Below are positions 30,832-48,904 of a stretch of DNA of 64,000 bases, piece by piece. The stretch covers positions 800,001 to 864,000 of the forward strand of contig CAWKFG010000004.1 in the NCBI GenBank assembly GCA_963848965.1, read 5' to 3'. Numbering within the stretch: position 1 is the stretch's first letter; every line of letters starts with the position of its first letter. A program made the position numbers and the translations under genes. Under the pieces are notes generated by a model. The model was not told where the DNA came from. It worked only from the letters and a program-made list of their open reading frames with translations, and did not search any database. The stretch is from an uncultured bacterium. Its GTDB lineage: Bacteria; Babelota; Babeliae; Babelales; Babelaceae.

Positions 30832-32760
30832 TTATTTATCTTGGAGCAATTGCACAATTTCTTGATGCCCTGCTTCTTGAGCAAGCATTAAAGCAGTCTT
30901 ACCTTGTTTATTAGTTAGAGACGTATTAGCTTTCACTTCTAATAGTTTCTGTACAAGACCTGTATGCCCTTTTTGAGCAGCATCCATAAGTACTGTATGT
31001 CCTTGACTATCTTGGTAATCAGTATCTTCTTGCTGTAGTGATATCTCTTGATTCTGCCGTTGTACAAGTTTATCAAGTAAATATTTTTTAAAACAGAATG
31101 GCTTATGTATTTTCCATTCTCTCATTTGACATTCCTTTGAGCAATAACGAACAGCTCTACAGCAATTGCACAGTTGTATGTGCTTACTTTGACAGACATG
31201 ACATTCTTTTTTATCTATATTAAGAGGATAAGAAAGTATAGTATAACCATAAGTATCTTGAGCTCCTGCTTGCAGAAGCAGATCCATTAATGCTACAGCT
31301 CCTTTTTGAGCAACTATAAGAAATGCATCTTTTTTACTGCTTTTTGTTTTTGCTCCTGCACTTAATAATATTTTTGCTATATCAGCATGCCCTCGATATA
31401 AAGCCCTTATTAAAGGGGTATTTCCATTATTGCTTTCTTCATTGACATCTGCACTATGAGCTATAAGCATTTCTACTATATTTTTGTTACCTTCTCTTGC
31501 AGCAACCATTAATGGAGTAATTCCATCTTGATCTTTTATATTTCCTCTAAATCCAGCTTTTATGAGGGCAGTAAGCATTCCTGTATAGTTCTGCTTTACT
31601 AATTCATGTACAAGCTGAGCTGGCAAAATTCCTTTTTGAAAGAGAGTTATAACTGCTTGTGTAAAGATGCAAGCTTGCTGCGGAGTAATAGTTATTTGAG
31701 CTCCTCGTTCTAAAAGCAACGCAATGAGATCACTCTCTAGTTTTGAAACAGCTGCAATGAGAGCTGTATGACCATCTTCAAATTGAGCATTAACATCAGC
31801 ACCTGCATCAAGAAGTAGTAGTATTATCTCTTTAGATCCCTGTAATACAGCATCTCTTACAAGAGTTGTTTTATTCTCGGGATCATTTACTTCTATACCC
31901 GCATCTATAAGCATACGTACTATTTCTTTATGGCCTTTAACTACGGCAAAATAGAGTGCAGTACATTTAGCAGTAGTTTTAGTATTAACATCGGCTCCTT
32001 TTTTAAGTAATACCTGTACCACATTACTATGCCCATAATGTGATGCGAGTATTAAAGCAGTTCTGCCATCTTGCGTAGCAGCATTAATATCTGCTCCTGC
32101 ATATAAAAGAGCACTTGTTGCTTCAGCATGACCATACTCTGCTGCAAATAATAAAGGAGTATAGTTATTAAAATCCTCAACATAATACTGATTTGAGTGA
32201 GGTAAAAGATATTTACAGGTTGCGTTAACATGAGCTCCATGAGCTATAAGCATTTCTATTACCTCTTTATCGCCATTATATGCAGCCCAATGTAATGCTG
32301 TTTTACCAGTGTTTTCCTGATCATTAACTCGTGCTCCTGCATCTAATAAAAGAGCTATAATATCTTTGGAAGACATGAACTTCCGGTATACTTCACCTGC
32401 AGATCCTTTACCTGCTGCCAAAGTTAACGCAGTACAACCATTACTATTTTTACTATGAATATCAACTTTAGCATCAATAAGTAGTTTCACTATCTCTTTG
32501 TAGCCATTTTGTGCTGCTATCATTAAAGCAGTCCATCCATGCTCATCTGTAGCATTAATAGGTGTACTACTTAAACGTATAAGTTGTCGAACTCCGTTTA
32601 CATCCCCTCTTGCAACAGCGCTTAAAAACCTATTTAACGATCGAGAAATATCCTCACGATTTGGCACTTGAGGACTTCTTTTTTCTTTCTCCATACAAGA
32701 GAGAACACCTGAAAAGCAAAAAACGAAAGCTAATAAATAATATACTAGAACATTTTTCAT
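30832..32760 (-). CDS. Secreted ankyrin-repeat protein with MYND zinc finger
   Basis: Many ankyrin repeats; CHVC...CNCC...YCSKECQ...W..HK..C. Confidence 0.9.
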   Translation of the reverse strand: MKNVLVYYLLAFVFCFSGVLSCMEKEKRSPQVPNREDISRSLNRFLSAVARGDVNGVRQLIRLSSTPINATDEHGWTALMIAAQNGYKEIVKLLIDAKVDIHSKNSNGCTALTLAAGKGSAGEVYRKFMSSKDIIALLLDAGARVNDQENTGKTALHWAAYNGDKEVIEMLIAHGAHVNATCKYLLPHSNQYYVEDFNNYTPLLFAAEYGHAEATSALLYAGADINAATQDGRTALILASHYGHSNVVQVLLKKGADVNTKTTAKCTALYFAVVKGHKEIVRMLIDAGIEVNDPENKTTLVRDAVLQGSKEIILLLLDAGADVNAQFEDGHTALIAAVSKLESDLIALLLERGAQITITPQQACIFTQAVITLFQKGILPAQLVHELVKQNYTGMLTALIKAGFRGNIKDQDGITPLMVAAREGNKNIVEMLIAHSADVNEESNNGNTPLIRALYRGHADIAKILLSAGAKTKSSKKDAFLIVAQKGAVALMDLLLQAGAQDTYGYTILSYPLNIDKKECHVCQSKHIQLCNCCRAVRYCSKECQMREWKIHKPFCFKKYLLDKLVQRQNQEISLQQEDTDYQDSQGHTVLMDAAQKGHTGLVQKLLEVKANTSLTNKQGKTALMLAQEAGHQEIVQLLQDK

Positions 32761-32845: not shown

Positions 32846-34528
32846 TTATTTCTTAATACGTGCTTGAGCTTTTATAAGAAGTTTTACTATTTCATCGTGA
32901 GCATTTTCTTGAGCAAGACTAAGAGCAGTTTTTCCACTTTTATCCATTATAAGAATATTCGCTTTCTTTTTAAGAAGTACTGTGACAAGCTCTGTATAGC
33001 CATTCTTTGCAGCCAGCATAAGAACTGTTTGACCTTGTTGATTAATAGGCTCGTTGAGATTGCTATCATGAGCCATTGCTTGATCAATAAGGTACTTTTT
33101 CATGCATGCTCCTTTATGTTTAGACCAATCAACTTTTTGGCAGTTTTGAGAGCAATAGCATATGCTCATGCATCGCTGACATTTTTTTGTAGGAGTCTTA
33201 TTACATATTTTACACGCTTTATTATTAACTTGTGTCTCTTCTTTATCAAACGAGATCTCTAATTCTGCAGGAAGTCCCATAAAAAGCGATAAATAATCAC
33301 CAAGAGGCCCAAGCTTTTCATTCTTTATATTTACACGAATAGATGCCGCTACTGAGGTATCTGAACTGCGTTCAGTATCAATTGTGATCTCTTCACTATT
33401 TTTAAGAAGAATCTCGTATAAGTGTTTACCCCTCTTTTCTTCTCCTCTTAATAATGCAGCGGTCTCGCCAGGAGTAATTAAGGACATTTCTTCAGGAGTT
33501 GAATCGTGCTTGGGCACAAGAAGCTTAACAAGCTCTATATGTCTGCTTCGAAATGCATGCATAAAAGCATTATGGCCCTCATTACATCGCAATGTAAGGC
33601 TAGAATTGTATCTTAACAAGACTTTCACTATCTTTGTGTTTCCCCTTTGAGCAGCTATCATTAAAGCAGTATCACCATTCTTATTTTGCATATCTACATA
33701 CTGATTCTGCTCTTCTAAATCCTTAATTGTTTCTATAAGTATTTTAACTACATCAAGATGCCCATTTTGAGCAGCTAACATTAAAGGGCTCCAGCCTACA
33801 TTATCTACAGCATCAATCTTAGCACCCTTACTTAAAAGAATTTTAACTAATGTTCTATGCCCTGAATCTGCTGCTCGAATTAAAGGCGTAGCTTGCGTTT
33901 CTTCGTCTCGAGCATTAACGTCAGCTCCTTGCTCTATAAGAAGGTTAGCTAATGCTAAATGTCCTTCAAAAGATGCAGCGATTAATGCTCTATTTTTAGC
34001 ACTTTGCTTATCATCGCTATGTTCTACTAATAATCCTACTATAAGTGAGTGACCTTCAGAAGCCGCTAGTTCTATAGCTGTAGCACGATCCTTATTTTTA
34101 AGAGAACTATTTGCTCCTCTTTCAAGCAAATAGTTAACAGCTGTTACATTACCATCAAGTGCAGCAACCATTAAAGGAGTTAATCCTAAAAGCGGCTCTT
34201 TAGCATTAATATCCAAGCCTGCATCAAGGATCCTTTTTATAGTAGCAAAATTCCCTTTAACCATCGCCTCTAAAAGAGAGCCAAGGTCTGGATTAACCTT
34301 CTTGGCTATAATAGCAAACTGTTTTGGTGTCCATTTCACCTGTTTTTCTGATTCTGTCACTATATTATCAAGAGTAATATTAAGTTGTGCAAGTTGTTCA
34401 GACGAAAGCTCGATACTTCCTTCATCAGTTTGTATAGCAATCTTGCAATTCTTTAAATCTGGGATCTTTTCCATTCCATACATTAAAATACTACTAGAGA
34501 GCATTGCTAATAACACATAATAATACAT
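32846..34528 (-). CDS. Secreted ankyrin-repeat protein with MYND zinc finger
   Basis: Ankyrin repeats; CKIC...CQRC...YCSQNCQKVDWSKHKGAC. Confidence 0.9.
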   Translation of the reverse strand: MYYYVLLAMLSSSILMYGMEKIPDLKNCKIAIQTDEGSIELSSEQLAQLNITLDNIVTESEKQVKWTPKQFAIIAKKVNPDLGSLLEAMVKGNFATIKRILDAGLDINAKEPLLGLTPLMVAALDGNVTAVNYLLERGANSSLKNKDRATAIELAASEGHSLIVGLLVEHSDDKQSAKNRALIAASFEGHLALANLLIEQGADVNARDEETQATPLIRAADSGHRTLVKILLSKGAKIDAVDNVGWSPLMLAAQNGHLDVVKILIETIKDLEEQNQYVDMQNKNGDTALMIAAQRGNTKIVKVLLRYNSSLTLRCNEGHNAFMHAFRSRHIELVKLLVPKHDSTPEEMSLITPGETAALLRGEEKRGKHLYEILLKNSEEITIDTERSSDTSVAASIRVNIKNEKLGPLGDYLSLFMGLPAELEISFDKEETQVNNKACKICNKTPTKKCQRCMSICYCSQNCQKVDWSKHKGACMKKYLIDQAMAHDSNLNEPINQQGQTVLMLAAKNGYTELVTVLLKKKANILIMDKSGKTALSLAQENAHDEIVKLLIKAQARIKK

Positions 34529-34933
34529 ACTATTCCTTTCTTATAAGCTATTTTTATATTCTTTACTATACATAATTCTGTCAATTTGTCAAAAATAACT
34601 TCTGCGTATCAGTTATAAGCACTAGTATGATGGCATACACTATGAACAGGCTCTATAGGCACTTTTTATTAAAAAAGGCAGAAAATACTGAGCAAAGCTC
34701 AGCAGTCTATAGGCTAGGGGATGAATGCCCATTTGCACAGGTTGCTAGTAATAGTAGATAAGCTTAACAAACAGATCTAGCATAGTAGACTATGAAAAAA
34801 GCATTTAACTATCGCTTTTATCCTACAAGCCAACAACAGCTTTCTCTATTAAGGTACAGCCCAGAACAAAGACACCCAAATCTTGACTTTTGCTTACTAA
34901 AAATTTCATAATAAACAAAAAAGGGAGTGTGCT

Positions 34934-35980
34934 GTGGCAGAAGGAACGAGCAAACAACCAGAGGTTAATGCAACCTCTACATTATTCCAATTTATATGGA
35001 TTGGTGTTACCTCTGTTGTCCTACTCTTTCTTATCTATCAATCAATTACTGATTTTAAATCGCTTGATGAAATACCAGAATTATTCCCTATAACACCAGC
35101 AAAAGCTGCTGAGTTTGGAGGAACTCCTGCTCATGTAAAGGTTGGATTACAAATAAGTAGTTTTTCTGTGTTTGATATGATTAATAACAACTTTGCCTTA
35201 GCAGGGACTGTCTGGTTTGAATTTGATCCAAGTATGACATCATTAGAAACTATCGGGAAATTCTCTTTTGAAAAGGGAGAAATTAAACTGCTTTCTCCTC
35301 CTAGCACTCGTATCATTGAAGGGCGATTATTTGCACGCTATAACGTCCGAGTTGAACTCAAAACTAACCTTAATCAAAGGCTCTTTCCTTTCACAGGACA
35401 TACACTCTATATAGTACTTGATAATAACTACGTTTCACCTGCAGAGATTACTTTTGAATCTGCTCTTAAAGACTTTGTTCTCTCACGAGGTATTGTTGTA
35501 TCCGGCTGGAAGGAATACGATCGTCATGTTTATACGGGCTATTCTGTTGCCGAATTAGAAAAAAACAATAAAGAAAAAACTATCTATCATCCTCGTGCTA
35601 TGTTCGCTATTGATTTTGGATTTGTAGGTATCAGACAGATACTTACTATTTTACTTCCTCTTATTCTTATTTTCTTTATCTCTGTTTTTTCCTTTGCTCT
35701 TGATCCTAAAGGATATTATACTTCAATTCTTACTATATCTTCAGGCAGTATCACAGGTTTGCTTGCATACCGCTTTGTTATTGAAAATCTCTCTCCTCGA
35801 GTAGGATATTTTATGCTCTCTGATTGGCTTTTTTTCCTTTTTTTAACAATGACATTCGTTATCTTTTTTGCAAATACTAAAACATTAAATCTTCATGTAC
35901 GAAGCAAAGAGTTTATAACAATCGTATTACATGCAATCGTTATAGCAACGGCAGTTTATCTTTTTAACTTTTGGGTTTAA
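34934..35980 (+). CDS. Prokaryotic pentameric ligand-gated ion channel (Pro-loop receptor) homologue
   Basis: VKVGLQI..F..FD.....F...GTVWF beta-strand pattern, RLFPF Pro-loop, M1 ILLP, M2-M3 LSPRVGYF..SD, four C-terminal TM helices, one N-terminal hydrophobic anchor. Confidence 0.82.
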   Translation: MAEGTSKQPEVNATSTLFQFIWIGVTSVVLLFLIYQSITDFKSLDEIPELFPITPAKAAEFGGTPAHVKVGLQISSFSVFDMINNNFALAGTVWFEFDPSMTSLETIGKFSFEKGEIKLLSPPSTRIIEGRLFARYNVRVELKTNLNQRLFPFTGHTLYIVLDNNYVSPAEITFESALKDFVLSRGIVVSGWKEYDRHVYTGYSVAELEKNNKEKTIYHPRAMFAIDFGFVGIRQILTILLPLILIFFISVFSFALDPKGYYTSILTISSGSITGLLAYRFVIENLSPRVGYFMLSDWLFFLFLTMTFVIFFANTKTLNLHVRSKEFITIVLHAIVIATAVYLFNFWV

Positions 35981-35982
35981 AA

Positions 35983-38322
35983 ATGAAAAAACTAGTAAAT
36001 TTTCTGTTTATAGTTCTTCTTTTTTGTTTCTCTACTAGAGCATTCGAGACACTCAAACAAGCAGAAGCCTATGCTCAGCTTAATCCTGAAGTTTCTATTG
36101 CTAAAGAGCAAAACATTTTAAGGCCTGATTATGAAGATTTTTATGTTCAACGAGGACCTTCACTTATTTCTGATATCTTAACACCATTTAAAGATCAGTT
36201 ATGGTCTCCTACCATCTTTAAAGATACACTACAAACAGTTGTACAAGAGCGAGAGCAAAAAGGATATTACGGTAAATTTATTCTTATTAAAACTCCAAAA
36301 CCAGGAACTCAATTTATTGTAATTGGACCGCTCTTTGGAACATTTCACTCACTTGTAAGAAACCTCAAAGAACTTGAAGTTCAAGGGTTTATAAATAATA
36401 ATTTAGAAGTGATTAAGCCAAACTGTTTTATAATTTTCAATGGTAATGTTATAAACGGCGCGCCACACGTTTTAGAGACACTCACACTTGTTCTTTCGCT
36501 TATGGAAAAAAATCCTCATGCCGTTAAGTACATAAGAGGACTCTATGAAAACGAACTATACTGGCAAAATACTACGTTAAAAAGCCAGCTTAAATTACAA
36601 GCACGGCGCCTTTCAAACGAAAATATACCATTTGCACGCCTTCTTACCCGATTTTTTAAGACACTCCCTCTTGGTATATACCTCAATAGTACCAATCCAC
36701 AAGAAGGGCTTTTACGTATCTCTTATTTTTCACTTGAAGATAATGTCTTTCTTGAAAATTCATGTATGAAAGAACTTCTAACCTATCGCCCTTCTATGAC
36801 AGTATGTAGATTAAAAACTGCTGCTAAGTCTGAAGAACGTGCTCCTGTAAGAGCAATTATTAAAGGTGAAAATCGGCTCATAAGCTATGAACAAAATCCA
36901 GGGCTCACTCTTTTGGAGCCTGAGCGTGGAGCAACAGCATGGTCTGTACTTTCAAGTCCTAATAAAATATACAGAGAACATTTTTCATTCTTCTATGACG
37001 CTTTTTCCATCATTACTATAGGGCCTACACTTGCAGACACTACCATTACTCTCTATCACCAGGATGTAAGAGATCTCATTAGTTTTAGAAGAGCAATGAC
37101 CTATAATCTACTTACTGGACAAGCTTTACTAAGACCACTATCAACACAACCTGCATTTGAGATACTTTTTGCTAAAAAAGAAGTTAAAGTCCCTCGTATT
37201 GAAGAGAAAGTTCCAGAAACTCTTCATATTACTGACACTATTAGATTGGGCTCTACCATGGATCTTTCAAAGAGTAACCAGCTTATTGGCAAAAGTATGA
37301 AAGCAGGTATCTCTGCACTTGTTAACAGAGTTAATCAATCTGGAGGCATTAATGGTAAGCTTTATCAAGTTACCATTGTAGATGACCAATATAATCCTAC
37401 ACTTTCACATGCTAACATAGAAAAATTTCTGCATAATAATATTAAGTTCATCTTATGCCCAGTAGGAACACCAACATTATCAGCATCACTCGATCTAATC
37501 AAAGAGAAAAAGATCTTTGTACTCTTTCCTAATAGCGGTTCTCTCATCTTCCGTAAACCAGATCTTACTAATATTGTTCACTTTAGACCTTCTTACGAAA
37601 CTGAAGCAGTTGCGATTACGTACCATATGATAAAGAATTTAGCATCTAAAAGATTTGCTTTCTTTTACCAAAATGATAGTTATGGCAGATCTGCTTTAGA
37701 CGGCGCTCTTAAAGTACTTAAAAAAGAAGGACTTAAAGAATGGATTGACGCTCCATATCTTGCTAATACAGTACAAGTAAATGAAGCAGTAAACGCCATT
37801 AGAAAAGGACTTCCAGATAGCATAGGATTCTTCTCAAACGTTACTCCTACTATAGAGCTTATACGTCAGTTAGGAAGTGAATTCTTAGCAGGCAGGAAAC
37901 TCTTTGCTATTTCTCCTGTAGGAGAACGGTCATTCAAACAGTTCGTAAGATCTTCAGGACTAGAAGTCTCCTTTGCTCAAGTAGTACCAAACCCTGCTAC
38001 AAGTGATCTTCAAATAGTACAAGAATATCGCCAAGAAATAGCAAAACAAGCATTAGCACCTGATACTTACGCACTTGAAGGATATATTGCTGCTTCACTC
38101 ACTGCAAATTATTTCAGAAGAATTAAAGGACCAATTACCTTTGAAGCTCTCTTAAAACTTATAGAAGGCACTAAGAATTACAAATTCAAAGGGCTTACAC
38201 TAAACTTTGATCCTCAAACACGAGCGTTAGCACATTATTTGTGGATTGAACAACCAAATGGTGAATGGGTAGAGCAAAATTTAAATGCTTTAGAGAGTAT
38301 AAATGAAAGCACTACACAATAA
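35983..38322 (+). CDS. Secreted fusion: degenerate PPP/metallophosphoesterase fold plus LIV-type periplasmic binding domain (A)
   Basis: GPLFG, FNGNVING, IRGLYE, FFKTLPL and VLSSPN align with PPP motifs; C-terminal VNQSGGINGK, DDQYNP, YQNDSYG, ALEGY. ATG lies 2 nt after the pLGIC stop. Confidence 0.8.
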   Translation: MKKLVNFLFIVLLFCFSTRAFETLKQAEAYAQLNPEVSIAKEQNILRPDYEDFYVQRGPSLISDILTPFKDQLWSPTIFKDTLQTVVQEREQKGYYGKFILIKTPKPGTQFIVIGPLFGTFHSLVRNLKELEVQGFINNNLEVIKPNCFIIFNGNVINGAPHVLETLTLVLSLMEKNPHAVKYIRGLYENELYWQNTTLKSQLKLQARRLSNENIPFARLLTRFFKTLPLGIYLNSTNPQEGLLRISYFSLEDNVFLENSCMKELLTYRPSMTVCRLKTAAKSEERAPVRAIIKGENRLISYEQNPGLTLLEPERGATAWSVLSSPNKIYREHFSFFYDAFSIITIGPTLADTTITLYHQDVRDLISFRRAMTYNLLTGQALLRPLSTQPAFEILFAKKEVKVPRIEEKVPETLHITDTIRLGSTMDLSKSNQLIGKSMKAGISALVNRVNQSGGINGKLYQVTIVDDQYNPTLSHANIEKFLHNNIKFILCPVGTPTLSASLDLIKEKKIFVLFPNSGSLIFRKPDLTNIVHFRPSYETEAVAITYHMIKNLASKRFAFFYQNDSYGRSALDGALKVLKKEGLKEWIDAPYLANTVQVNEAVNAIRKGLPDSIGFFSNVTPTIELIRQLGSEFLAGRKLFAISPVGERSFKQFVRSSGLEVSFAQVVPNPATSDLQIVQEYRQEIAKQALAPDTYALEGYIAASLTANYFRRIKGPITFEALLKLIEGTKNYKFKGLTLNFDPQTRALAHYLWIEQPNGEWVEQNLNALESINESTTQ

Positions 38323-38345
38323 AGTAGAATACTTCTACTTTATTG
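38317..38345 (+). terminator. Intergenic hairpin
   Basis: CAATAAAGTAGAA-tac-TTCTACTTTATTG. Confidence 0.6.
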
Positions 38346-38389
38346 ATTAAAGCACATTAAGATGTTTAATTAAGCAGAGGAAATGAGAT

Positions 38390-40732
38390 ATGCTAAAATT
38401 TTTATTTTTAATTTGTTCTTTAGCAAGTACATTTCTTCATGGACTAGATTCAATTAACACGCTCCTTGCATTTACCCAAATTCATGAAGAATATCCAGAA
38501 GCAGATAATGATGATATTGCTAATCTTCACTATACCAACTTTTATAAAAAGAATGCTGCTACTTTTTGGACACGCTTTCTAGCACGGCTTGGCCTAGCTA
38601 CCTTTAACGTTCAACAATACTATCAAAATCTTAAAGACATAACCGAAAAAAGACTCAAAGACGCTTTGCGAAAGAGATATACTATTATTCTTAAAGTTCC
38701 TGCTAGTACTCAGTTTATAGTAATCAGTAATAGTCAAGGTGAAATACACTCTCTTGCTCGCATTCTTAATGCTCTCTACCAAAATAAGATCATTGATGAA
38801 AACTTTAAAATTCTAAGCAATGATCTTTACTTTATTTTTAATGGTAATATGACAACTAGCTCTCCTTATGCGTTAGAAAGCCTTAATGTTATTACAAATA
38901 TCTTGAGAGTAAATCCGAATAGAGCTTTCTTTATTAAAGGGGTTTATTCTGATAAAGAACGATGGAAAACAAGAGCTCTTGGTTATCAAGTAGATATTCA
39001 ACTTTCTTACTTTAAAGATGCCTCTTCTGTCATTAGAGAATTCTTTAACACCCTTCCATTAGGAGTATACATACTTTCAGAAGATCCAAATGAGCCCCCT
39101 ATTCGTATTTCACACTATGATCTTAATGCACAAGAATTTAATAACTTAGAATGCTCTCTCAAATCACCACACACAGCTCAGACGCAAGAAGGCATATGCT
39201 TAGTAGGAGAACCAACTGCTCCACCACAAGGACCGTTAACAGCTCTTATTACCGGAAAAGATGATAATGTTGACCTTAGTAATTCACATGGTCTCCTTTT
39301 CGTTCAACGAGAAAATCCGCCTACGTGGAAAGTTTTTTCAAGCCCTTCGCGTTTTTATAGACAAAAATTTGGCTTCATTTACGATGCTTTTGCGCTTATT
39401 ACAGTAGGAAAATCTGTTCAATCCAGTCTTATTAGTTTATTTAATGAAAATGTACTCCATCCTAGATTCAAACTTGAAAAGACATATGATATTGTTACAG
39501 GAAAATCCATCCTTGATCCTATTAAGTCCTCTACATGGGATTCTATTTTTCAAACTTTGCGTTCTATGGCTCTCAAACATTCTACTTCTTTGCCAGAACG
39601 AAAAGCTTCAATTCAGATACAAGATAAAGCTTTTTCACTCTTAAAAGGAACCGTAGAACTTGGTTCAACACTTGACCTTTCAGCTCGTATTAAAAATATA
39701 GGAATTGCAACGAAAAATGGGGTTTCACTTGCACTCAATAAAGTAAATAGAGAAGGTGGTATTAATGGTAAGCGATATTTCGTTGATTTTTTAAATGATC
39801 ACTACAACCCTTCTACCTCAAAAGCTAATATAGAGCAGCTTATAAAAAACAATGTTAAACTTATTCTTGCTCCTGCAGGCACTCCAACTATACTTAGATG
39901 GCTCGATTTAATTGAAAATAAAGAAGTCTTTGTGCTATTCCCAAATAGTGGCTCTCCACAACTAAGAAAACCGGATCTTACTCATATTGTTCACTTTAGG
40001 CAATCATACTTAAATGAAGGACAGGCACTTGCATATTATATGATAAAAAATGTAGATTCTAAAAAGTTTACCTTCTTTTACCAAGATGATGATTATGGTA
40101 AATCTGCTTTAGAAGGAGCTCGCCAAGTTCTTAAAAGAGAAGGGATAAAAGAGTGGACAGAAGTAGCCCATCCGCCAACTGCAGTTCAGGTAACTGAAGC
40201 AGCAAACATTATTAGAAAGAGTAATCCCGAAGCTATAGGATTTTTTTCAAATATTGCGCCTACTACGAATTGTATTAGAGACTTAGGTGGAGAGTTTTTA
40301 ACAGGTAAAAACCTTTTCGCTGTATCACCTTTAGGCGATAGATCATTTAAACAGTTTATCCAATCAATGGGACTAGAAGTCACCTTCTCTCAAGTAATAC
40401 CAGATCCACTAACTAGTATGATTGAAATAGTTAAAGAGTATAGACAAGAAGCAACAAAACAAGCACTTACACCAGATACCTATTCTCTGGAAGCGTATAT
40501 TGCTACTATAATAACTGCAGATTATTTAAGAAAGATTAAAGGGCCGATTACTCCTGATGCTCTTCTAAAACTTATAGAAAACACAAAGAATTATAACTTT
40601 AAAGGACTTACTCTTAATTTTAATCCAAAAACACATCAGCTTAATCAATATCTCTGGATAGAGCAACCGGATGGTAAATGGCTAGAACATGATATGGAAA
40701 AATTAACTACCTACTTAACAGAAAGCAAATAG
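38390..40732 (+). CDS. Secreted pseudo-phosphatase plus periplasmic binding domain fusion (B)
   Basis: Same architecture; NREGGINGK, NDHYNP, YQDDDYG. Confidence 0.8.
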   Translation: MLKFLFLICSLASTFLHGLDSINTLLAFTQIHEEYPEADNDDIANLHYTNFYKKNAATFWTRFLARLGLATFNVQQYYQNLKDITEKRLKDALRKRYTIILKVPASTQFIVISNSQGEIHSLARILNALYQNKIIDENFKILSNDLYFIFNGNMTTSSPYALESLNVITNILRVNPNRAFFIKGVYSDKERWKTRALGYQVDIQLSYFKDASSVIREFFNTLPLGVYILSEDPNEPPIRISHYDLNAQEFNNLECSLKSPHTAQTQEGICLVGEPTAPPQGPLTALITGKDDNVDLSNSHGLLFVQRENPPTWKVFSSPSRFYRQKFGFIYDAFALITVGKSVQSSLISLFNENVLHPRFKLEKTYDIVTGKSILDPIKSSTWDSIFQTLRSMALKHSTSLPERKASIQIQDKAFSLLKGTVELGSTLDLSARIKNIGIATKNGVSLALNKVNREGGINGKRYFVDFLNDHYNPSTSKANIEQLIKNNVKLILAPAGTPTILRWLDLIENKEVFVLFPNSGSPQLRKPDLTHIVHFRQSYLNEGQALAYYMIKNVDSKKFTFFYQDDDYGKSALEGARQVLKREGIKEWTEVAHPPTAVQVTEAANIIRKSNPEAIGFFSNIAPTTNCIRDLGGEFLTGKNLFAVSPLGDRSFKQFIQSMGLEVTFSQVIPDPLTSMIEIVKEYRQEATKQALTPDTYSLEAYIATIITADYLRKIKGPITPDALLKLIENTKNYNFKGLTLNFNPKTHQLNQYLWIEQPDGKWLEHDMEKLTTYLTESK

Positions 40733-40737
40733 TGCTT

Positions 40738-40763
40738 AAAGGTTCCCTTTCAAGGGAACCTTT
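40738..40763. terminator. Bidirectional terminator
   Basis: AAAGGTTCCCTT-tc-AAGGGAACCTTT between convergent genes. Confidence 0.85.
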
Positions 40764-40765
40764 TC

Positions 40766-41971
40766 TTATTCATAAATACTAGAAAGCTTAAGAATCTTCA
40801 TCTGAGTAATTTGCTTGCATACATGGCCAGCCTTATTTAAAATTTTAAGCGGTTGTTTTTCTTTATAGGCTCTTAAAAGCTCTTCAAAAGAGTGAATACC
40901 TTCAAAGAACTTAGAAATATGGATTGACTGGCTGATACCAAAGCCATGTGGATAGCCCCGAGCTTCAATAAGCTCATTATTTTTTAAATCTCCTACTACC
41001 ATAATATGAATGGGATACCAAATTAAATCGCCCTCTTCTAGAGTATCTGATTTACCTAATTCCCTTAAGTTATTTATAGCGGCAAATGTAGTTTTGCAGA
41101 AGTATGGCATACCACATACTTGAGCGGCACGTAAAATAAGAGTAGCACATTCAAATCCTGTATAGGGCTTAGCTCCTGGTCGATCCCACAAAGTCACTTT
41201 TTGCCCATTTTTTATATTCTCTTGTATTGTAAAGTTATCTGGCTCAACTAATGATATAAAACTACAACCGCCCCAAATGTAAGGAATTTTAGACGTAGTT
41301 GCAGTCCAAGCTTTCAAGATTTTGACAAAGGCATCTTTAGAATACGTAACGACGCTAACCTCTTTTGGTATCAACGCTATTTTAGCAGTGTAAGAAGCAA
41401 AATTAATCATTTTTATAGCATATGCTTTTGAAGTGTCATAACTAGGTACACGCACAAAGCGAGTTCCTGCTGAATACCATATGCCAGTTTCTTTATCTTG
41501 CCAAGGAAAGGCTAACGTCAAGATACCATCTAAAAGGATATATTTACTAAAATTTTCTGTATAAGGCGCAGGAACAGCATCTAAATTCCCTAGCTTATTC
41601 TTAAGGTCTTTAAGGTATAATATGTCTTTTTTTTGCATCCAAAATAGGTTCGATCTTTTTCCTTCTGCAGTATAATAATAATTGTTATTAATCAGACAAC
41701 AAATTTCATCTCCTCTTACTTCAACTACTTTAACAACTTCGTTAAACAAAGGTTGATATGCACGAAGACCAATTATTTTCCCATCTGCTTGAATTTCTAA
41801 AGCAGGTAACTCATACGAATCTCCGTGCCCTTTTATAACTTGCTCTTCAGCTGCATCTGTAACTGGTACAATTATAATAGCTTCAGTAGAAAGCTCATGT
41901 TGATCCCAATAACCTGCAGTTATACATGGAAAAACTAATGTTAAAGTAATAAAAAGTAGTTTTTTAGACAT
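40766..41971 (-). CDS. NlpC/P60-family protein (paralog of 8223..9464)
   Basis: Signal peptide, GYWD..ELS, WYSAGTRFV, PYIWGG, FECATL, GDLIW..IH. Confidence 0.8.
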   Translation of the reverse strand: MSKKLLFITLTLVFPCITAGYWDQHELSTEAIIIVPVTDAAEEQVIKGHGDSYELPALEIQADGKIIGLRAYQPLFNEVVKVVEVRGDEICCLINNNYYYTAEGKRSNLFWMQKKDILYLKDLKNKLGNLDAVPAPYTENFSKYILLDGILTLAFPWQDKETGIWYSAGTRFVRVPSYDTSKAYAIKMINFASYTAKIALIPKEVSVVTYSKDAFVKILKAWTATTSKIPYIWGGCSFISLVEPDNFTIQENIKNGQKVTLWDRPGAKPYTGFECATLILRAAQVCGMPYFCKTTFAAINNLRELGKSDTLEEGDLIWYPIHIMVVGDLKNNELIEARGYPHGFGISQSIHISKFFEGIHSFEELLRAYKEKQPLKILNKAGHVCKQITQMKILKLSSIYE

Positions 41972-42151
41972 TAAGACTCCGATATACTTTTTAATAAATT
42001 AAAACTATACACAAAAGTATATTAATTTTTGAAAGTTTTGACTAGACAGAAAGTGCATTTTTTACTATCATTATGATGATTCGTTAATTCCAATCAGAAT
42101 TTTAATACCAGATAAATATAAGTATAAATAAGATATATCTGAAAGCTATCA

Positions 42152-43471
42152 ATGAAAACAACTTTAAAAAGAACCATTCTTTTCTTTTTAATAAGCTTTT
42201 TAGCTTGTATAGCCACTATACGGTTGGAAAATAACCCAACCTTACTAGAAAAATTACATATCACCATGGTGAGTAATGACGATTGGATAAAAGAGCTCAA
42301 TGAAGCAGGTATCTTAACCCAACCTTGCAAAAAGCTCTCTATAGAGAAGAAACAATACGATATACCTTTATTTAAGCATTATCCTCAACTGCTAGGAAAA
42401 TTACCCTATATCTCTCTAGGTAATCTTCCTACACCAATTATGAAACTTGAAAACTTGTCTTCAAAACCAGGTTATCCTATCATTTACGTAAAAAGAGATG
42501 ACCTTACAGGTACCTCACAAGAATATGGAGGCAATAAGGTAAGAAAACTTGAACCTCTCTTTGGTGAAGCCTTAATGCATGGTGCTACCGAGATTATTAC
42601 CTTAGGATGGGCAGGATCTAATAGTGCAGTTGCTACATCTGCATATGCAAAAAAGCTGGGCTTAAAATGTACTTGTATGCTAAAACCTCAAGATAATTCA
42701 TCTCTTTTACAAAAGAACTTATTACTTCATACCCATTATGGAACAGAGCTCCACTATTATCCTGACAATAATTGGCGCAAACTTGGTACCATTACCTTAT
42801 GGCATAATAGAAAACAGGTAACTGGAAGGTATCCGTATATTATTCCCACTGGTGGTTCTAATGCATTAGGTACTATAGGCTTTGTAAATGCTGCTCTAGA
42901 GCTTAAAAAGCAGATTTTAGACGGGCAAATGCCTGAGCCAGACCGCATTTATGTAGCATGTGCAGGAATGGCTACTAGTGTAGGACTAATCCTTGGATGT
43001 AAGCTTGCTCAACTAAAAACACAGGTAATTCCAGTAATAGTAGGGCCGGAAGAAACTCCTGGTCAATACAAAACAGGAATTAAAAAGCTCTTTGATGAAG
43101 CACTTGCTCTTCTTCGTAGCTATGATCCATCAATACCTTTTCTACAAGTTCCAGAAGATATAGCAATTAATTATGATTTTAGTGGCCCAAAATATGGTAT
43201 ATTTACTTTACAAGGTATGAACGCTCAAAAACTAGCACAAGAGCTAGAAAACCTTAACTTAGATGGTATCTATACAGCAAAAGCATTTGCAGCTCTTTTA
43301 GATGATATAAAGAATAAGAAAATTACAACAGATGAGATAGTTCTTTTTTGGAATACTTACTGCGGTCTTGATTTTTCAAAGCTTACTGATTCTCTCAATT
43401 ACTCTCAATTACCTTCAAGCTTTCATCACTACTTCCAGACAGAATTGCAACCTTTAGAAAGATCACTATAA
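42152..43471 (+). CDS. PLP-dependent D-cysteine desulfhydrase/ACC deaminase family protein
   Basis: LPTPI, KRDDL, YGGNKVRKLE, IPTGGSN, LDGIYTAKA. Confidence 0.88.
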   Translation: MKTTLKRTILFFLISFLACIATIRLENNPTLLEKLHITMVSNDDWIKELNEAGILTQPCKKLSIEKKQYDIPLFKHYPQLLGKLPYISLGNLPTPIMKLENLSSKPGYPIIYVKRDDLTGTSQEYGGNKVRKLEPLFGEALMHGATEIITLGWAGSNSAVATSAYAKKLGLKCTCMLKPQDNSSLLQKNLLLHTHYGTELHYYPDNNWRKLGTITLWHNRKQVTGRYPYIIPTGGSNALGTIGFVNAALELKKQILDGQMPEPDRIYVACAGMATSVGLILGCKLAQLKTQVIPVIVGPEETPGQYKTGIKKLFDEALALLRSYDPSIPFLQVPEDIAINYDFSGPKYGIFTLQGMNAQKLAQELENLNLDGIYTAKAFAALLDDIKNKKITTDEIVLFWNTYCGLDFSKLTDSLNYSQLPSSFHHYFQTELQPLERSL

Positions 43472-43805
43472 AAGAAGGCTGTCTAATAACCATTTTTCTG
43501 CACAACACCAGTTCAAGCTAAGAACTATAGATAGCATGAACTTTGGGCTTAAAAGTTAGGCAGTAAGAATATGTCCACTTATTTTAGTCTATTTTTGGAA
43601 CGGGATATCTATAGATAAAAACAGCCCAAGAAGAAAGAAGTATATACCTTATCCTCCTTCAGTTGCTGTCTATTATAATCTACAATAATCGTATTTTATC
43701 GTAAAAAACAGCACTTTTTAATCATCAAACACAATCTCTTGAAGATCGAATAATCACCATGCTACAATTCAATTACAAAAGTATTCTATTTATAAGAGGA
43801 ATTAT

Positions 43806-44207
43806 ATGAAAATCTTATTTTTGCTTATCACTCTTGTAACAATAAACACATATTCAACAATACCTCAAGAAGAGAGCTCATCTCTTCCAAACAAAAGACC
43901 CACAACAGTTCGAGTAAATAGAATTTATCACCTATTTAAATCTATAGGGAGTTTGTCAAGTGTCTTTCTCTGTCTCGTAGCAAGTCGCTATATATACATA
44001 AGGCTAGCTAGTGATTTTGATTTACCTAATAATGCTCGAATTGGTGAAACTCTTTTATACAGACTCTACTTTTGTGGTGGTATATTCGCTATCATCGGTC
44101 TAGCCGATACAGCATACTATAAGTGGCAAACCTTTACTGAATCTCTACAAAAATGCTTAGATGGTCACTATGAACAAATTTGCAACCATGTAAACTATAC
44201 TAGCTAG
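43806..44207 (+). CDS. Hypothetical membrane protein
   Basis: GAGGA RBS; signal peptide and two hydrophobic segments. Confidence 0.6.
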   Translation: MKILFLLITLVTINTYSTIPQEESSSLPNKRPTTVRVNRIYHLFKSIGSLSSVFLCLVASRYIYIRLASDFDLPNNARIGETLLYRLYFCGGIFAIIGLADTAYYKWQTFTESLQKCLDGHYEQICNHVNYTS

Positions 44208-44220
44208 TAGTTATTTTTGT

Positions 44221-44571
44221 TTAAGTAGAAGAAGCTTTCTCATCTTGAACTTCAGCAGACTGGCTAGAGCTATTTTCCTTTGCTTTACTTTCATCTTCTT
44301 CTTTTAATAACCCTAAAACTCGAAAGACTCCAAGAATTCTCTCTTCATCTTTTTTTTGTTCTTTTCGCATATAGGCAGCATCTGCCTCTGCAATTTTATA
44401 ACTTGTCTCGTTAAAATCCGTCCACATATCCTTTGCCACTGCCCACCAAGTACTTAAAAAAGAGCTTTCTTCTGTAGCTTGCTCTTTCGCTGCCATAGCT
44501 TTGCTCTCATAAACCCCAAAAGTACCTACGAAGAAAACAGAAGTTAATAAGAAGATATTAATCTTTACCAT
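44221..44571 (-). CDS. Hypothetical secreted protein
   Basis: GGAG RBS; signal peptide ending AMA; charged mature region. Confidence 0.65.
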   Translation of the reverse strand: MVKINIFLLTSVFFVGTFGVYESKAMAAKEQATEESSFLSTWWAVAKDMWTDFNETSYKIAEADAAYMRKEQKKDEERILGVFRVLGLLKEEDESKAKENSSSQSAEVQDEKASST

Positions 44572-44664
44572 TTAGCACTCCTTTGACTAAGGCCAAACAA
44601 ACACTGTCTATTTTTCAGAATAATTCAAAAACGGTAAAATTTCAATTTTTAACAATAAAATTTT
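44552..44664. repeat. Duplicated upstream/start block, copy 1
   Basis: Similar to 55566..55678 (AAGATATTAATCTTTACCATT...CAGAATAATTCAAA...AATAAAATTTT). Confidence 0.85.
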
Positions 44665-44724
44665 GCTGGTTCAAAGTTATACGGTAACTGTAAGGTATAT
44701 TTTATTACTATCTTTAGGTGTCTC

Positions 44725-45072
44725 ATGAAATACTTTCTATACATTAGATTACTATTATTTAGTTTTTATAGCACTGTTCAGTGTATTATTGAGTCAATTG
44801 ATACACTTAAAAGCAGAAACGTCGGTCCCTATGTTTATCTTTATACTGATAGACATAGAGACGATCTTCCAGAATTAGATGAGCAAGAGCTTCATGCGCT
44901 TAAACATTTTTTAGAAATACACGCTTGCAGAGGAGAAATAATTCACGTCTGCATCGAAGTTACCATTCCGCTTACAAAAGCAAATACAGCTTTGCTCACA
45001 CGAGATATTTTAAAAGAAGAGTATTTTAGGACACCTTTATTATGTGGTAATGGCTTTAAGTGGTTGAAGTAA
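44725..45072 (+). pseudogene. Truncated member of the DxH/GxxH family
   Basis: Signal peptide, VYLYTDRH, IHVCIE; runs into the convergent gene and lacks the C-terminal GxxH part. Confidence 0.55.
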
Positions 45073-46257
45073 TTTTATCTTCAGCTCAAAATTCTTAATA
45101 AGGCTATCAAGCATCGTATGTATCTCTTTTAACCGAGTAAAATCTGATGAGACTTTTGTAAGAGCAGTTCCATATTTTATATTACGTAATAAGCTCAAAG
45201 TAAATAAGCTTGCAGCAGATGCTATCACATAGTATTGTAATTTTCGCTGAGTATCTTTCTCTATAAATGAAGCCACAGTAAAACTTATAATTATCCAGCC
45301 AATAAGACTAGGTATATAAAACCCATAATATGCCAAATCTCCCTTATTCTTATGACATAATTCTTTCAGCGTTTCCCACAATATAATGTACCACCCTATT
45401 TCTTTATTTAAATATGGCCCAATTAAACCTTCTACAGTACATTTTAAGCAGTTTAATATTTCAATAGCTGCCATATATAATAACTTTTTATGAGTAACCT
45501 CAGTAGAAGTATAAAGTGACTCAATAAAATTAAAGTTCTTTATATATTCTTCAAGCGCAATTCTAAAAGCCTTACTATCATAATCCCATATAGCATCTTG
45601 TAATGAACTAAAATCTTTATAAGGACGTCTAAGAATATTATCATCACTACTACCATACTTCACTGTTTTATAAAATCTATTTACACCCTTTAATACTTTT
45701 TCCTCAGGAACTCTTATTAGTCTCCCGTTAAAATTTGTAATTTCCTTTTTTGCGGTAACTGCTCCAGGGGTAATATGACGAATGATATAATCCTTAAAGA
45801 CTCTCATATTGCGATCTTTATTAGGTAAGTAATCCATAATTTCTCGCCATGCTGCAGCATATCGAGGAGTAAGCAAAACGTTAGGACAAAAATTATGTAA
45901 AGCAGAAACGACATCTACAAAATCCTTATCAGCACGTGCATGCATTAATACTTCTCCAAGATCTCTATTCTTTCTTGGTATTTTATTCTGCATTATAAAA
46001 GATTTGAGCTCTGGCTGAGAAGAAAGCACGTTTGAAAGAGCCTTTCTTCCTTCTTTGCTTAAAGCTGTATAAACATTCTCAATAAATTTCTGATCTAAAG
46101 CAGGAACCTGTGCATGCCCCTCCAATTGTAATAGCCCCTCTTCTAATCTGCAATCTTCTAAAAGTGGTTTTTTATAGTCATTCATCTCCATAGATCTAAT
46201 TGGCAAAACCACTGCTATGGCAAAAAATACAAATAATGTAGTTAACGAAAATCTCAT
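45040..46257 (-). CDS. Hypothetical secreted/membrane protein
   Basis: Signal peptide ending SME; two C-terminal hydrophobic helices. Confidence 0.7.
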   Translation of the reverse strand: MRFSLTTLFVFFAIAVVLPIRSMEMNDYKKPLLEDCRLEEGLLQLEGHAQVPALDQKFIENVYTALSKEGRKALSNVLSSQPELKSFIMQNKIPRKNRDLGEVLMHARADKDFVDVVSALHNFCPNVLLTPRYAAAWREIMDYLPNKDRNMRVFKDYIIRHITPGAVTAKKEITNFNGRLIRVPEEKVLKGVNRFYKTVKYGSSDDNILRRPYKDFSSLQDAIWDYDSKAFRIALEEYIKNFNFIESLYTSTEVTHKKLLYMAAIEILNCLKCTVEGLIGPYLNKEIGWYIILWETLKELCHKNKGDLAYYGFYIPSLIGWIIISFTVASFIEKDTQRKLQYYVIASAASLFTLSLLRNIKYGTALTKVSSDFTRLKEIHTMLDSLIKNFELKIKLLQPLKAITT

Positions 46258-46537: not shown

Positions 46538-48904
46538 ATGCTCAAGCTTTTATTTTTCATTTTTTTTCTAATTACGGCGCCTCTTCGTGGATTAGATTCA
46601 ATTGATAATCTTCTTACGTTTACTCAAACTCATGATGAATATCCAGAAGCGGATAATGATAATATTGCTAATCTTCGCTATACCAACTTTTACAAAAAGA
46701 GTATTCCTACTTTTTGGAAACGCTTTCTAGCAAGATTAGGTCTCGCTACCTTTGACGCTCAACAATACTATCTCAATCTAAAAGAAATAACCGAAAAAAG
46801 ACTTAAAGAAGGTTTACGAAAGAGGCATACTCGTGTTCTTAAAGTTCCTGCTGGTACACAGTTTTTAATTATTAGCAATACTCAAGGTGACTTACATTCA
46901 CTTACCCGTATATTTAATGCACTATACCAAAATCATATTATAGACCAGAACTTTAAAATCTTAAGCACTAATCTTTACCTTATTTTTAACGGTAATATGA
47001 CTACAAGCTCTCCTTATGCTTTAGAAAGTCTTAACGTTATTATAAACATTCTAAAAGCAAATCCGGGACATGCTTTCTTCATTAAAGGTACTTACTCAGA
47101 TAAGGAGCAATGGAAAACAAGAGCACTCGGCTATCAAGTAGATATTCGGCTCTCTTACTTTAAAGATGCTCCCTCTGTTACTAGAGAATTCTTTAACACT
47201 CTCCCTTTAGGAATATACATACTTTCAGAAGATCCTAATGAGCCTCCTATTCGTATATCTCACTATGATCTAAGTGCACAAGAATTCAATAATCTGGAAT
47301 GTTCTCTTAAATCACCGCATACATCTCAAATTCAAGAAGGCATATGTTTAGTGGGAGAGCCAACTGCACCACCTCAAGGACCGCTAACCGCTCTTATTGC
47401 CGGAAAAGATGATAACGTTGATCTTAGTAATTCTCGTGGCCTTCTCTTTGTTCAACGAGAAAATCCGCCTACTTGGAAAGTCTTTTCTAGCCCCTCTCGA
47501 TATTATAGACAAAAATTTGGCTTTATTTACGATGCTTTTGGGCTTCTTACTATAGGCAAATCTGTTAAATCTAGCTTTATCAGTCTATTTAATGAAAATG
47601 TGCTTCACCCTGGTTTTAAGCTTGCAAAAACGTACAGCATCGTTACAGGGAAACCTTTAACAGTTCCTCAAATTAAAGGCTCTAAAAATTGGCAAAATCT
47701 TTTTCAAAAGCTCAGCTCGTTAGCAAAAGACACCAATCTAAAGCAGTTCCAACATAAGCAAGTTTTAACCAAGACAACCGATAGCCATCCTCAAAAAACT
47801 ACAAAAGGAATCGTAGAGTTAGGCTCTAGCGTAGACCTTTCAAGAAGCTTAAAAAACTTAGGTCGTGATATCCGCATAGGAATTTCACTTGCTTTAAATG
47901 GAATAAACCAATCAGGAGGGATAAATGGTAAATCCTATCAAGTTACTATACTTGATGATCAATATACTCCATTGCTTACTAGAAAAAACGTAGATTATTT
48001 CTTAAAGAAAGGCATAAGCTTAATCCTTATTCCTACAGGAAGTCCTACTCTGGAAGCGTGTTTAGATTTAATTAAAAACAGAAAGATCCTTGTTCTATTT
48101 CCAACAACTGGAGCTGATCTCTTTAGAAAACCTGAGTTAGAATATATTGTACATTTTAGGAAATCTAATAGAATTCAAGCGAAAATAGTAGTTGAACACT
48201 TAGTAAAACAATCTACGTCACTAAAAAAGTTTGCTTTTTTCTACCAAAACGATCTTCATGGCAACGAATCACTAAAAGGGGCTTTAGAATCTCTTAAAAA
48301 GGCTAGAATAAAAAATTGGGTTTTAGTCCCTTACACTTCAAATACATTATTAAAAATACCGGAAGCAGCAGAAACTATAAGAAAAGCTAATCCCGACGCT
48401 ATCGGTCTCTTTTCGACGCTTCCTCCAGCCATAGAACTTTTACGGCAATTAGGCGGTGAATTTTTAGAACCTAAAATGATTTTTACTAATTCAACATTAG
48501 GAGAAAAGTCTTTCCGTGAATTTTTAGATTCGTTAGGATTAAAAGCTACCATAGCGCAAGTAACTCCTAACCCGCAAACAAGTTCCCTAGAAATAGTTAA
48601 AGAATATAGAAATGAGATAGTAAAAAAAGGTTTTAAAACAGACCCTTATTCTCTCGAAGGTTATATAGCAACTCAGTTAACTGCAGATTTTCTTAAGAAA
48701 ATATCTGGGCCTATTACAAAGCCTTCACTCTTAAAACTAATTAAAAGTTTAAAAAACTATAACTTTAAAGGATTAAATTTAAACTTTAACCCAAAAACGC
48801 ATGAAATTGCAGACTACCTTTGGATAGAAGAGCCAACAGGACAATGGATAGAATATAAAATTAAAGATGATGAAGGCAATGTTGTTTCTCAAAAGTCTAT
48901 ATGA
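46538..48904 (+). CDS. Secreted pseudo-phosphatase plus periplasmic binding domain fusion (C)
   Basis: N-terminal half very similar to B; divergent binding domain. Confidence 0.8.
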   Translation: MLKLLFFIFFLITAPLRGLDSIDNLLTFTQTHDEYPEADNDNIANLRYTNFYKKSIPTFWKRFLARLGLATFDAQQYYLNLKEITEKRLKEGLRKRHTRVLKVPAGTQFLIISNTQGDLHSLTRIFNALYQNHIIDQNFKILSTNLYLIFNGNMTTSSPYALESLNVIINILKANPGHAFFIKGTYSDKEQWKTRALGYQVDIRLSYFKDAPSVTREFFNTLPLGIYILSEDPNEPPIRISHYDLSAQEFNNLECSLKSPHTSQIQEGICLVGEPTAPPQGPLTALIAGKDDNVDLSNSRGLLFVQRENPPTWKVFSSPSRYYRQKFGFIYDAFGLLTIGKSVKSSFISLFNENVLHPGFKLAKTYSIVTGKPLTVPQIKGSKNWQNLFQKLSSLAKDTNLKQFQHKQVLTKTTDSHPQKTTKGIVELGSSVDLSRSLKNLGRDIRIGISLALNGINQSGGINGKSYQVTILDDQYTPLLTRKNVDYFLKKGISLILIPTGSPTLEACLDLIKNRKILVLFPTTGADLFRKPELEYIVHFRKSNRIQAKIVVEHLVKQSTSLKKFAFFYQNDLHGNESLKGALESLKKARIKNWVLVPYTSNTLLKIPEAAETIRKANPDAIGLFSTLPPAIELLRQLGGEFLEPKMIFTNSTLGEKSFREFLDSLGLKATIAQVTPNPQTSSLEIVKEYRNEIVKKGFKTDPYSLEGYIATQLTADFLKKISGPITKPSLLKLIKSLKNYNFKGLNLNFNPKTHEIADYLWIEEPTGQWIEYKIKDDEGNVVSQKSI

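Follow-up and report, generated by a model that had tools for sequence, protein, structure and literature searches.

A divergent pentameric ligand-gated ion channel encoded with exported pseudo-phosphatase/binding-protein partners in an uncultured member of the Babelaceae

What is a gene for a pentameric ligand-gated ion channel (pLGIC) doing directly in front of two genes for exported proteins, each joining a phosphatase-like domain to a periplasmic binding domain, in a host-dependent bacterium living inside protists? The question is raised by positions 34934-40732 of the window analyzed here, a stretch of 64,000 nucleotides (contig CAWKFG010000004.1, positions 800,001 to 864,000) from an uncultured member of the Babelaceae whose assembly (GCA_963848965.1) comprises 1.73 Mb in 5 contigs and is 88.7% complete. 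A sequence-only reading of this stretch had described a pLGIC-like gene followed by two secreted fusions of a dead phosphatase fold and a binding domain, with a third copy nearby, and had proposed that the sensor was split off from the channel, multiplied and attached to the phosphatase fold, giving a modular receptor with interchangeable sensors. Structure models, profile searches and a survey of gene neighborhoods across the Dependentiae favor the operon as one receptor-channel system, in which the channel would work with the exported proteins as exchangeable sensor subunits, and we give this reading a probability of roughly 0.6.

The channel subunit and its exported partners

The 348-amino-acid (aa) product of the first gene is, as judged from its predicted structure and profile matches, a divergent pLGIC (Pro-loop receptor) subunit and a distant relative of the ligand-gated channels of nerve cells, as the sequence-only reading had supposed. 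Its AlphaFold2 (AF2) model, built from an alignment of 52 relatives (A1), has a mean pLDDT of 94.3 and comprises an N-terminal membrane helix (residues 16-39), a periplasmic beta-sandwich (~60-232, with strands at 66-230) and four transmembrane helices, M1 to M4, within 233-345 (233-255, 258-286, 295-315 and 322-345). Foldseek against the PDB places GLIC first (E 2.5e-17, TM 0.60/0.66) and returns at least 500 matches at E<=0.001, and among the 45 matches listed all are pLGICs. At the sequence level, the A1 profile aligns with GLIC sequences from the Pro-loop to M3 (E 4.9e-12), and a phmmer search of PDB sequences retrieves sTeLIC (E 1.7e-4) and DeCLIC (E 0.06-0.075) with the membrane part covered. 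Searches of Pfam give no family at E<=1, Neur_chan included, the NCBIfam model LGIC_1 reaches E 1.3e-6 with 28.1 bits against a cut-off of 500, and none of the 104 related proteins found at E<=0.001 (about a hundred clusters at 90% identity) carries a precomputed Pfam domain. GLIC, ELIC and sTeLIC have the same subunit fold of a beta-sandwich and four transmembrane helices and the same Pro-loop FP, pre-M1 Arg and M1 Pro, but the window channel is only ~15% identical to them and has an extra conserved N-terminal membrane helix; moreover, the known channels work alone, whereas the window family has dedicated partner genes.

The residues that mark the superfamily, including the [F/Y]P found at the tip of loop beta6-beta7, whose proline is absolutely conserved, are set out in the available text of Jaiteh et al. 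2016 (PMC4795631). In A1 the corresponding P152 is invariant, F151 is kept in 51 of the 52 rows, and HMMER pairs this motif with YPFD of GLIC; the pre-M1 R234 is kept in 48 of 52 rows, and the M1 P242, aligned to LPM in M1 of GLIC, in 52 of 52. The pore-lining M2 (window 35720-35800) keeps the small-and-polar stripe of channels and, in the HMMER alignment to GLIC, has Thr at 9' in 44/52 rows and Phe at 16' in 51/52. Position 9' of the pLGIC pore is normally Leu or Ile and acts as the hydrophobic gate residue, so that the Thr found here suggests that the gate may sit elsewhere. The acidic ring of GLIC at -2'/-1' is unmatched in the channel and ion selectivity is therefore left unassigned.

A second channel paralogue, 43% identical, is encoded in the same genome (contig C2, 30539-31567, minus strand) with no partner gene adjoining; its neighbors are a 448-aa exported protein, resembling an outer-membrane barrel when judged by eye, and a 443-aa glycosyltransferase-like open reading frame (ORF). 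A quick tree places it in a separate clade of unpartnered or upstream-partnered channels (SH-aLRT 99). In genomes G164-G168 (loci L049, L050, L051, L052 and L086), all of one family, the channel ORF as read from stop-to-stop frames has an extra N-terminal stretch of ~210 aa that resembles several membrane helices and matches nothing in Pfam.

Inspection of the sequence bears out the gene arrangement first described: the channel gene ends with TAA at 35978-35980 and the first partner, F2, starts with ATG at 35983, leaving a 2-nt gap, and F3 and F4 (Table 1) are the second gene of the same architecture and the third copy at 46538. The F2-F3 intergenic distance is 67 nt, and between F3 and F4 lie five ORFs, spread over both strands and 115-439 aa long. 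All three proteins have short hydrophobic N-termini that look like signal peptides by eye, and they are the only partners in the genome, all within the window.

The first ~380 residues of the partners, termed N-dom here, have no Pfam match in F2, F3 or F4, and many of their relatives are recognized by PF00149 Metallophos. The AF2 model of the F2 N-dom (pLDDT 86.5, from alignment A2 of 21 N-doms) is closest in VIA-align to phosphatases of the PPP family, with Z 22.0 to PP5 (rmsd 2.8 Å over 244 residues), 20.8 to PP1 and rdgC and 19.6 to calcineurin, compared with Z 8-13 for generic metallophosphoesterases. Foldseek likewise retrieves PPZ1, PP1, PP2A and calcineurin at E ~1e-10, and the A2 profile finds PPP phosphatases among PDB sequences at E 1e-7 to 1e-4, with rdgC, PP5 and PP2A at E 1e-7 to 1e-5.

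PPP enzymes are marked by the motifs GDxHG, GDxVDRG and GNHE plus two downstream His. All of these are present in two intact PPP-like genes of the same genome (contig C1, 76216-77901, and contig C4, 724751-726568, the latter upstream of the window), and alignment to these paralogues shows what has become of them in the partners. The counterpart of GDxHG is GPLFG in F2, SNSQG in F3 and SNTQG in F4, that of GDxxDR is GNVING in F2 and GNMTTS in F3 and F4, and that of GNH(E/D) is GLYE, GVYS and GTYS, respectively; the HGG and GHxH histidines are missing from all three, so that none of the six PPP metal ligands survives, each position having been substituted or lost. About 100 residues of the intact paralogues are deleted in the N-doms, and the motif positions are unconserved across the 21 aligned N-doms. 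The relatives P0117, P0129 and P0165 retain partial motifs, GD(I/L)HG and GNHE(D), and the HGG and GHxH histidines are absent from every aligned member of the family, these three included. As the catalytic motifs are gone, N-dom is classed as a pseudo-phosphatase of the PPP branch rather than a phosphatase, in agreement with the dead phosphatase fold named from the sequence. The intact paralogues share a ...HSL(V/I)R.L... signature with the dead domain and are possible relatives of its ancestor.

The motifs that survive in P0117, P0129 and P0165, the many relatives that Metallophos still matches and the frequent retention of ligand binding by pseudoenzymes would suit a domain that is itself a sensor of, or a residual enzyme for, a phosphorylated host metabolite, in which case each partner would have two ligand sites. 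Such a role is improbable, as F2, F3 and F4 are left without any of the six metal ligands, the downstream histidines are lost throughout the alignment together with the ~100 deleted residues, and the motif positions vary from one N-dom to the next.

The C-terminal part of each partner is a type-I periplasmic binding domain (PBP) of the LivJ/LivK-like Venus flytrap kind, recognized by Pfam Peripla_BP_6 with 132.5 bits in F2, 137.7 in F3 and 107.1 in F4 against a cut-off of 31.7 (E 3.7e-38 for F2 and 9.9e-40 for F3). The closest PDB sequence matches are homologues of Leu/Ile/Val-binding proteins, the best for F2 being 4kv7 (E 3.4e-21). LivJ-type binding proteins normally serve transporters, and a search for a LivH/M-type permease (PF02653) that matched 12 of 14 known genomes as a control found none in the own genome at its 88.7% completeness, so another membrane partner would be needed. 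As the channel is the conserved neighbor of the binding proteins, they might deliver a nutrient to a pLGIC-like pentamer acting as a conduit, a new uptake route for an auxotroph rather than a signaling system. We consider uptake unlikely, because characterized pLGICs pass small inorganic ions down their gradients with no amino-acid transport known, because M2 retains a channel-like pore stripe, and because up to seven binding domains per chain resemble sensing more than stoichiometric delivery.

The two modules have different histories in the three partners. F3 and F4 are 80.7% identical over N-dom and 49.4% over PBP, F2 and F3 are 27.9% and 59.9% identical over the same domains, and F2 and F4 29.1% and 52.1%. 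These values define two docking-domain classes, alpha in F2 and beta in F3 and F4, between which flytraps have been exchanged. Such domain swapping fits the modular receptor with interchangeable sensors that was proposed at the outset.

Linkage and fusion across the Dependentiae

Adjacency of channel and partner genes extends well beyond this genome. In a pattern scan restricted to a single genome for each species, an N-dom gene lies downstream of the channel on the same strand in 14/14 loci, in one of them by way of a second tandem channel, and a PBP follows in 13 of the 14, the fourteenth locus leaving its contig. The 30 best-scoring loci of the phylum, a set that includes the window's own locus and is biased to close relatives, all have the channel followed by N-dom (30/30). 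Another 40 regions, picked by hand from ranks 31-150 and in some cases for their long frames, hold partner genes in 32 and a lone channel in 8. Of about 275 channel matches, the fetched Dependentiae loci cover 80 non-identical channel genes, and 69 of these have a partner domain on their own strand at a distance of no more than 450 nt, which bears out the expected linkage of channel and fusions in other genomes. By gene order, 53 of these 80 channel domains are of the channel/N-dom type, 10 are PBP/channel/N-dom, 3 PBP/channel, 2 a channel-PBP single ORF and 1 N-dom/channel/N-dom, and 11 stand alone, 2 of them just upstream of another, linked channel. The adjacency of channel and partner is not due to chance.

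The two components also occur in the same genomes. Channel profile matches are found in 160 of 261 phylum genomes (111 of the 189 high-quality ones) and N-dom, at E<=1e-40, in 128 of 261; when the two tables are compared by eye, 128 genomes have both, 32 the channel only, 101 neither and 0 N-dom only. Family tallies for channel and N-dom run in parallel in families f2 (0/16 and 0/16), f4 (0/14 and 0/14) and f5 (7/7 and 7/7). The N-dom family comprises 563 clusters at 50% identity (E<=1e-30), and the named relatives are all metagenome-assembled genomes of Dependentiae, TM6 or Babeliaceae, two of them deposited under Pseudomonadota, of which at least one falls in the phylum set used here.

Given that F4 and many paralogues elsewhere are not beside a channel, and that Dependentiae encode many exported proteins of unassigned role, the exported fusions could act alone, toward the host or in the envelope, and have no more in common with the channel than a transcription unit. 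This is very improbable in view of an adjacency that, in several gene orders, persists from family to family within the phylum, of natural fusions in five plus two forms and of the lack of any genome with N-dom and no channel (0/128).

The orders found are channel/N-dom-PBP as in the window, PBP/channel/N-dom as three genes, N-dom-PBP upstream of the channel, and channel-PBP as one ORF; in G167, N-dom is followed by three or four PBPs. The three-gene loci form one clade of 8 rows (SH-aLRT 100). Five protein clusters hold channel, N-dom and PBP in one chain, three of 1102-1105 aa and the others of 1113 and 1086 aa. The genome G196 (95% complete) encodes two tandem channel-PBP fusions with linkers of ~25-45 residues and has no N-dom match anywhere, and in a quick tree its fusions nest inside the channel/N-dom clade (SH-aLRT 95). 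As separate genes are far commoner and the channel-PBP fusion nests among unfused operons, the fusions look derived, and the idea of a sensor "split off", which implies a fused ancestor, fits this less well. It is mainly from G196 that N-dom is read as the tie between flytrap and channel where the two are not covalently joined. The topology of the channel fits either arrangement, since the N-terminal helix puts the beta-sandwich in the periplasm and M4 ends there, where a C-terminal PBP or an exported partner would be found.

In three-gene loci such as L077 (G133), the PBP and N-dom proteins each have an N-terminal hydrophobic anchor and long low-complexity linkers or tails rich in Q, V and P, which suggests that the partners in loci of this type may be membrane-tethered. 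A 1118-aa "fusion" in G223 was rejected, as a TGA stop and 3 nt part it into two genes that share a frame.

Among 153 proteins, made up of the 150 best N-dom representatives and three channel-N-dom-PBP fusions, the architectures are N-dom-PBP in 77, N-dom alone in 35, N-dom with two PBPs in 22, with three in 7, with four in 3 and with five, six and seven in 1 each, channel-N-dom-PBP in 5 and PBP-N-dom in 1. N-dom comes first in the chain in 147 of the 150 best representatives and is followed by 0 to 7 PBPs. Two of these chains are P0171 (3020 aa) and P0202 (2821 aa), in which a single dead-phosphatase domain precedes seven and six binding domains, respectively.

The 35 proteins that are N-dom only, together with the closest relatives of the window locus (L002, L011 and L013), in which the gene at the F3 position encodes a beta-type N-dom alone of 339-367 aa without PBP, point to a role of N-dom that is independent of the flytrap. 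On this basis the partners could be structural or assembly factors, or regulators that act constitutively, for instance as an inhibitory cap, and whose flytraps bind a solute without a part in gating. The binding domain is nevertheless kept in 118 of 153 proteins in up to seven copies per chain, it is fused straight to the channel where N-dom is absent, and it scores well over the Pfam threshold and so is not decaying, all of which makes this reading quite unlikely.

Layout and surroundings of the locus

The features of the locus are collected in Table 1. The promoter-like site and the terminator-like hairpin bracket the channel, F2 and F3, which fits one transcription unit, and the hairpin likely marks the end of the operon, judging from its sequence and position. 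The promoter scan is not enriched overall, with 25 sites against 22.8 expected from shuffles, so the promoter-like site is weak evidence. This site falls within the ORF of a TnpB remnant upstream of the channel gene, which is part of the genomic context and stands outside the channel-partner system. A search for sequencing runs covering 34800-40800 lists none, with no RNA data among them, and an Rfam scan of 34400-49200 returns nothing at gathering score.

Table 1. Coordinates of the channel, its partners and adjoining features in the window
Feature	Position in window	Strand	Description and basis
pLGIC subunit gene	34934..35980	+	348 aa; GTG start behind AGGGAG-like ribosome site
F2, exported partner	35983..38322	+	779 aa from ATG at 35983; ORF frame 35971-38322
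F2 pseudo-phosphatase domain (N-dom, alpha type)	36043..37137	+	AF2 model, VIA-align, profile
F2 PBP, LivJ/LivK-like Venus flytrap	37237..38247	+	Pfam Peripla_BP_6
F3, second exported partner	38390..40732	+	780 aa
F3 N-dom (beta type)	~38447-39589	+	Motif loss
F3 PBP	39650-40666	+	Peripla_BP_6
F4, third partner, unlinked	46538..48904	+	788 aa
F4 N-dom (beta type, as in F3)		+	
F4 PBP	47816-48811	+	Peripla_BP_6
Promoter-like site	34883..34912	+	TTGACT, 18 nt, CATAAT; 10/12 consensus matches; 22 nt before channel start
Terminator-like hairpin	40738..40763	+	11-bp stem, then Ts; directly behind F3, between convergent genes
TnpB N-terminus remnant, IS605-type	34792..34908	+	39 codons; Pfam HTH_OrfB_IS605, E 3.1e-6, 27 bits (cut-off 21)

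Directly upstream and divergent from the channel gene, two large ankyrin-repeat proteins with one zf-MYND finger each are encoded on the minus strand (30832-32760 and 32846-34528). Ankyrin repeats and zf-MYND fingers are eukaryote-like domains typical of host-associated bacteria. Downstream, the minus-strand ORFs 40766-41971 and 45040-46257, of about 400 aa each, match no Pfam family, and kinship between the two was rejected (BLASTP E 1.9).

A proposed receptor-channel system and its relatives

In the proposed system, the 348-aa protein would form a pentamer in the inner membrane, held by its extra N-terminal helix and with its ligand-binding-type domain in the periplasm, to which F2, F3 and the unlinked F4 would all be exported. 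The dead PPP-fold domain, no longer metal-binding, would have a non-catalytic part, docking the partners on the channel or acting as their adaptor, and the C-terminal Venus flytrap would bind a small solute, probably amino-acid-like. Closure of the flytrap may be relayed to the channel allosterically, or its ligand may be handed to the pocket of the channel itself, and the response of the channel would change ion flux and hence membrane potential. With differing flytraps mounted on one type of docking domain, a single channel would receive input from several ligands, and a plausible role is the reading of host-derived metabolites by a host-dependent bacterium.

Binding of channel and partners is proposed from genes and models, and a complex prediction for two channel periplasmic domains and the F2 N-dom, run without controls, speaks neither for nor against it, the score being 0.01 where the mark is 0.32. 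Several observations weigh against the proposal. Of the three modules N-dom evolves fastest, at ~25-30% identity between genomes compared with 40% for PBP, which is unlike a rigid docking interface unless the domain co-evolves with the channel. The window channel has Thr (FPFT) where an Asp of the Pro-loop would form the conserved salt bridge with the pre-M1 Arg; at this position A1 has D in 33/52 rows and E in 5/52, so that the family largely fits and the window copy does not. On the side of linkage, 11 of the 80 channel genes are unpartnered, including the C2 paralogue of this genome, F4 lies outside the operon, and the regions sampled were in part picked by hand. On the side of co-occurrence, 32 of the 160 channel-bearing genomes are without N-dom at E<=1e-40, family f8 has the channel in 6/8 genomes and N-dom in 0/8, and related genomes are not independent samples, no statistic being attached to the counts. 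The argument from G196 comes from a single genome, the tree is the quick version with a careful maximum-likelihood search unfinished, and the absence of a permease is unproven, as the own genome is only 88.7% complete. Overall, the original interpretation is partly supported, in that every part of it that sequence comparison and structure models could address held, and it is its functional part that we infer.

A bolder extension is a combinatorial receptor, in which a single pentamer would exchange sensor subunits by way of the two docking classes, each carrying none to seven flytraps. We regard this as possible but doubtful. If true, it would mean that many periplasmic metabolite signals converge on one electrical output in a host-dependent bacterium, bacteria would have a non-covalent equivalent of the neuronal receptors that combine flytraps and channel in modular form, and it would provide the first pseudo-phosphatase known as a channel adaptor.

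Elements of the proposed system have counterparts in other receptors. In ionotropic glutamate receptors and the bacterial GluR0, an ion channel is driven by flytraps, which can be stacked as modules, but the core is a tetrameric pore resembling potassium channels, the flytraps are covalently inserted and there is no adaptor pseudoenzyme. In the MBP-Tar and LuxP-LuxQ systems, a ligand is reported by a free periplasmic binding protein when it docks on its receptor in the membrane, as the partners are proposed to do, but the output is a kinase or methyl-accepting cascade instead of an ion channel and a pseudo-phosphatase adaptor is likewise lacking. Vps29 is a case of the calcineurin-like phosphoesterase fold reused as a non-catalytic interaction module; N-dom differs from it (Z 10.6) in belonging specifically to the PPP branch (Z 19-22), in being periplasmic and in being fused to solute-binding domains.

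The nearest precedent in print is the survey by Tasneem, Iyer, Jakobsson and Aravind 2005 (PMC549065), the available text of which reports PBP-I domains fused N-terminally to bacterial pLGICs, as the sequence-only reading had noted, and operons with stand-alone PBP-II or Cache domains, and already predicts that pLGICs cooperate with such fused or operonic binding modules. These systems follow the same logic of a pLGIC core with a fused or adjoining periplasmic module that binds small molecules. The differences from what that text describes are that PBP-I is placed downstream or C-terminally here, sits on a dead PPP domain and is multiplied (0-7 per chain, in several genes per genome), and that the dead-phosphatase system is, as far as seen, confined to Dependentiae; the word "phosphatase" has 0 occurrences in the text of PMC549065. 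Jaiteh et al. 2016 (PMC4795631) deliberately excluded terminal domains and describe such associations as known only at the genome level. DeCLIC (PMC12664993, PMC9897478), presented in PMC12664993 as so far the only pLGIC with a partly characterized accessory N-terminal domain, is likewise prokaryotic and has its gating modulated by an added domain in the periplasm, but that domain belongs to the same chain, is N-terminal and calcium-binding and has a fold unrelated to PPP or PBP, whereas the partners here are separate exported proteins. The PBP relation of ionotropic glutamate receptors is mentioned in the available texts of both PMC549065 and PMC12664993.

A pLGIC with a pseudo-phosphatase partner, or any pLGIC in Dependentiae, was not described in the full-text literature searched, which leaves subscription journals outside. 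The supposition that the arrangement was new thus stands for the dead-phosphatase module, its C-terminal or downstream placement and its multiplication, which are undescribed in that literature, and falls for the cooperation of pLGICs with binding proteins, which the available text of PMC549065 shows to have been published in 2005.

The native roles of prokaryotic pLGICs and their control by accessory domains are little understood, and the channel and its partners are split by nature, so that sensor and pore lend themselves to separate expression, to exchange and to titration. The channel-PBP and channel-N-dom-PBP chains are natural fused controls, which makes the gating of pLGICs by accessory domains directly testable. 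If the proposed system is real, the PPP fold would gain a new use as a periplasmic adaptor, and the operon would be a pointer to the means by which obligate intracellular bacteria read their protist hosts.

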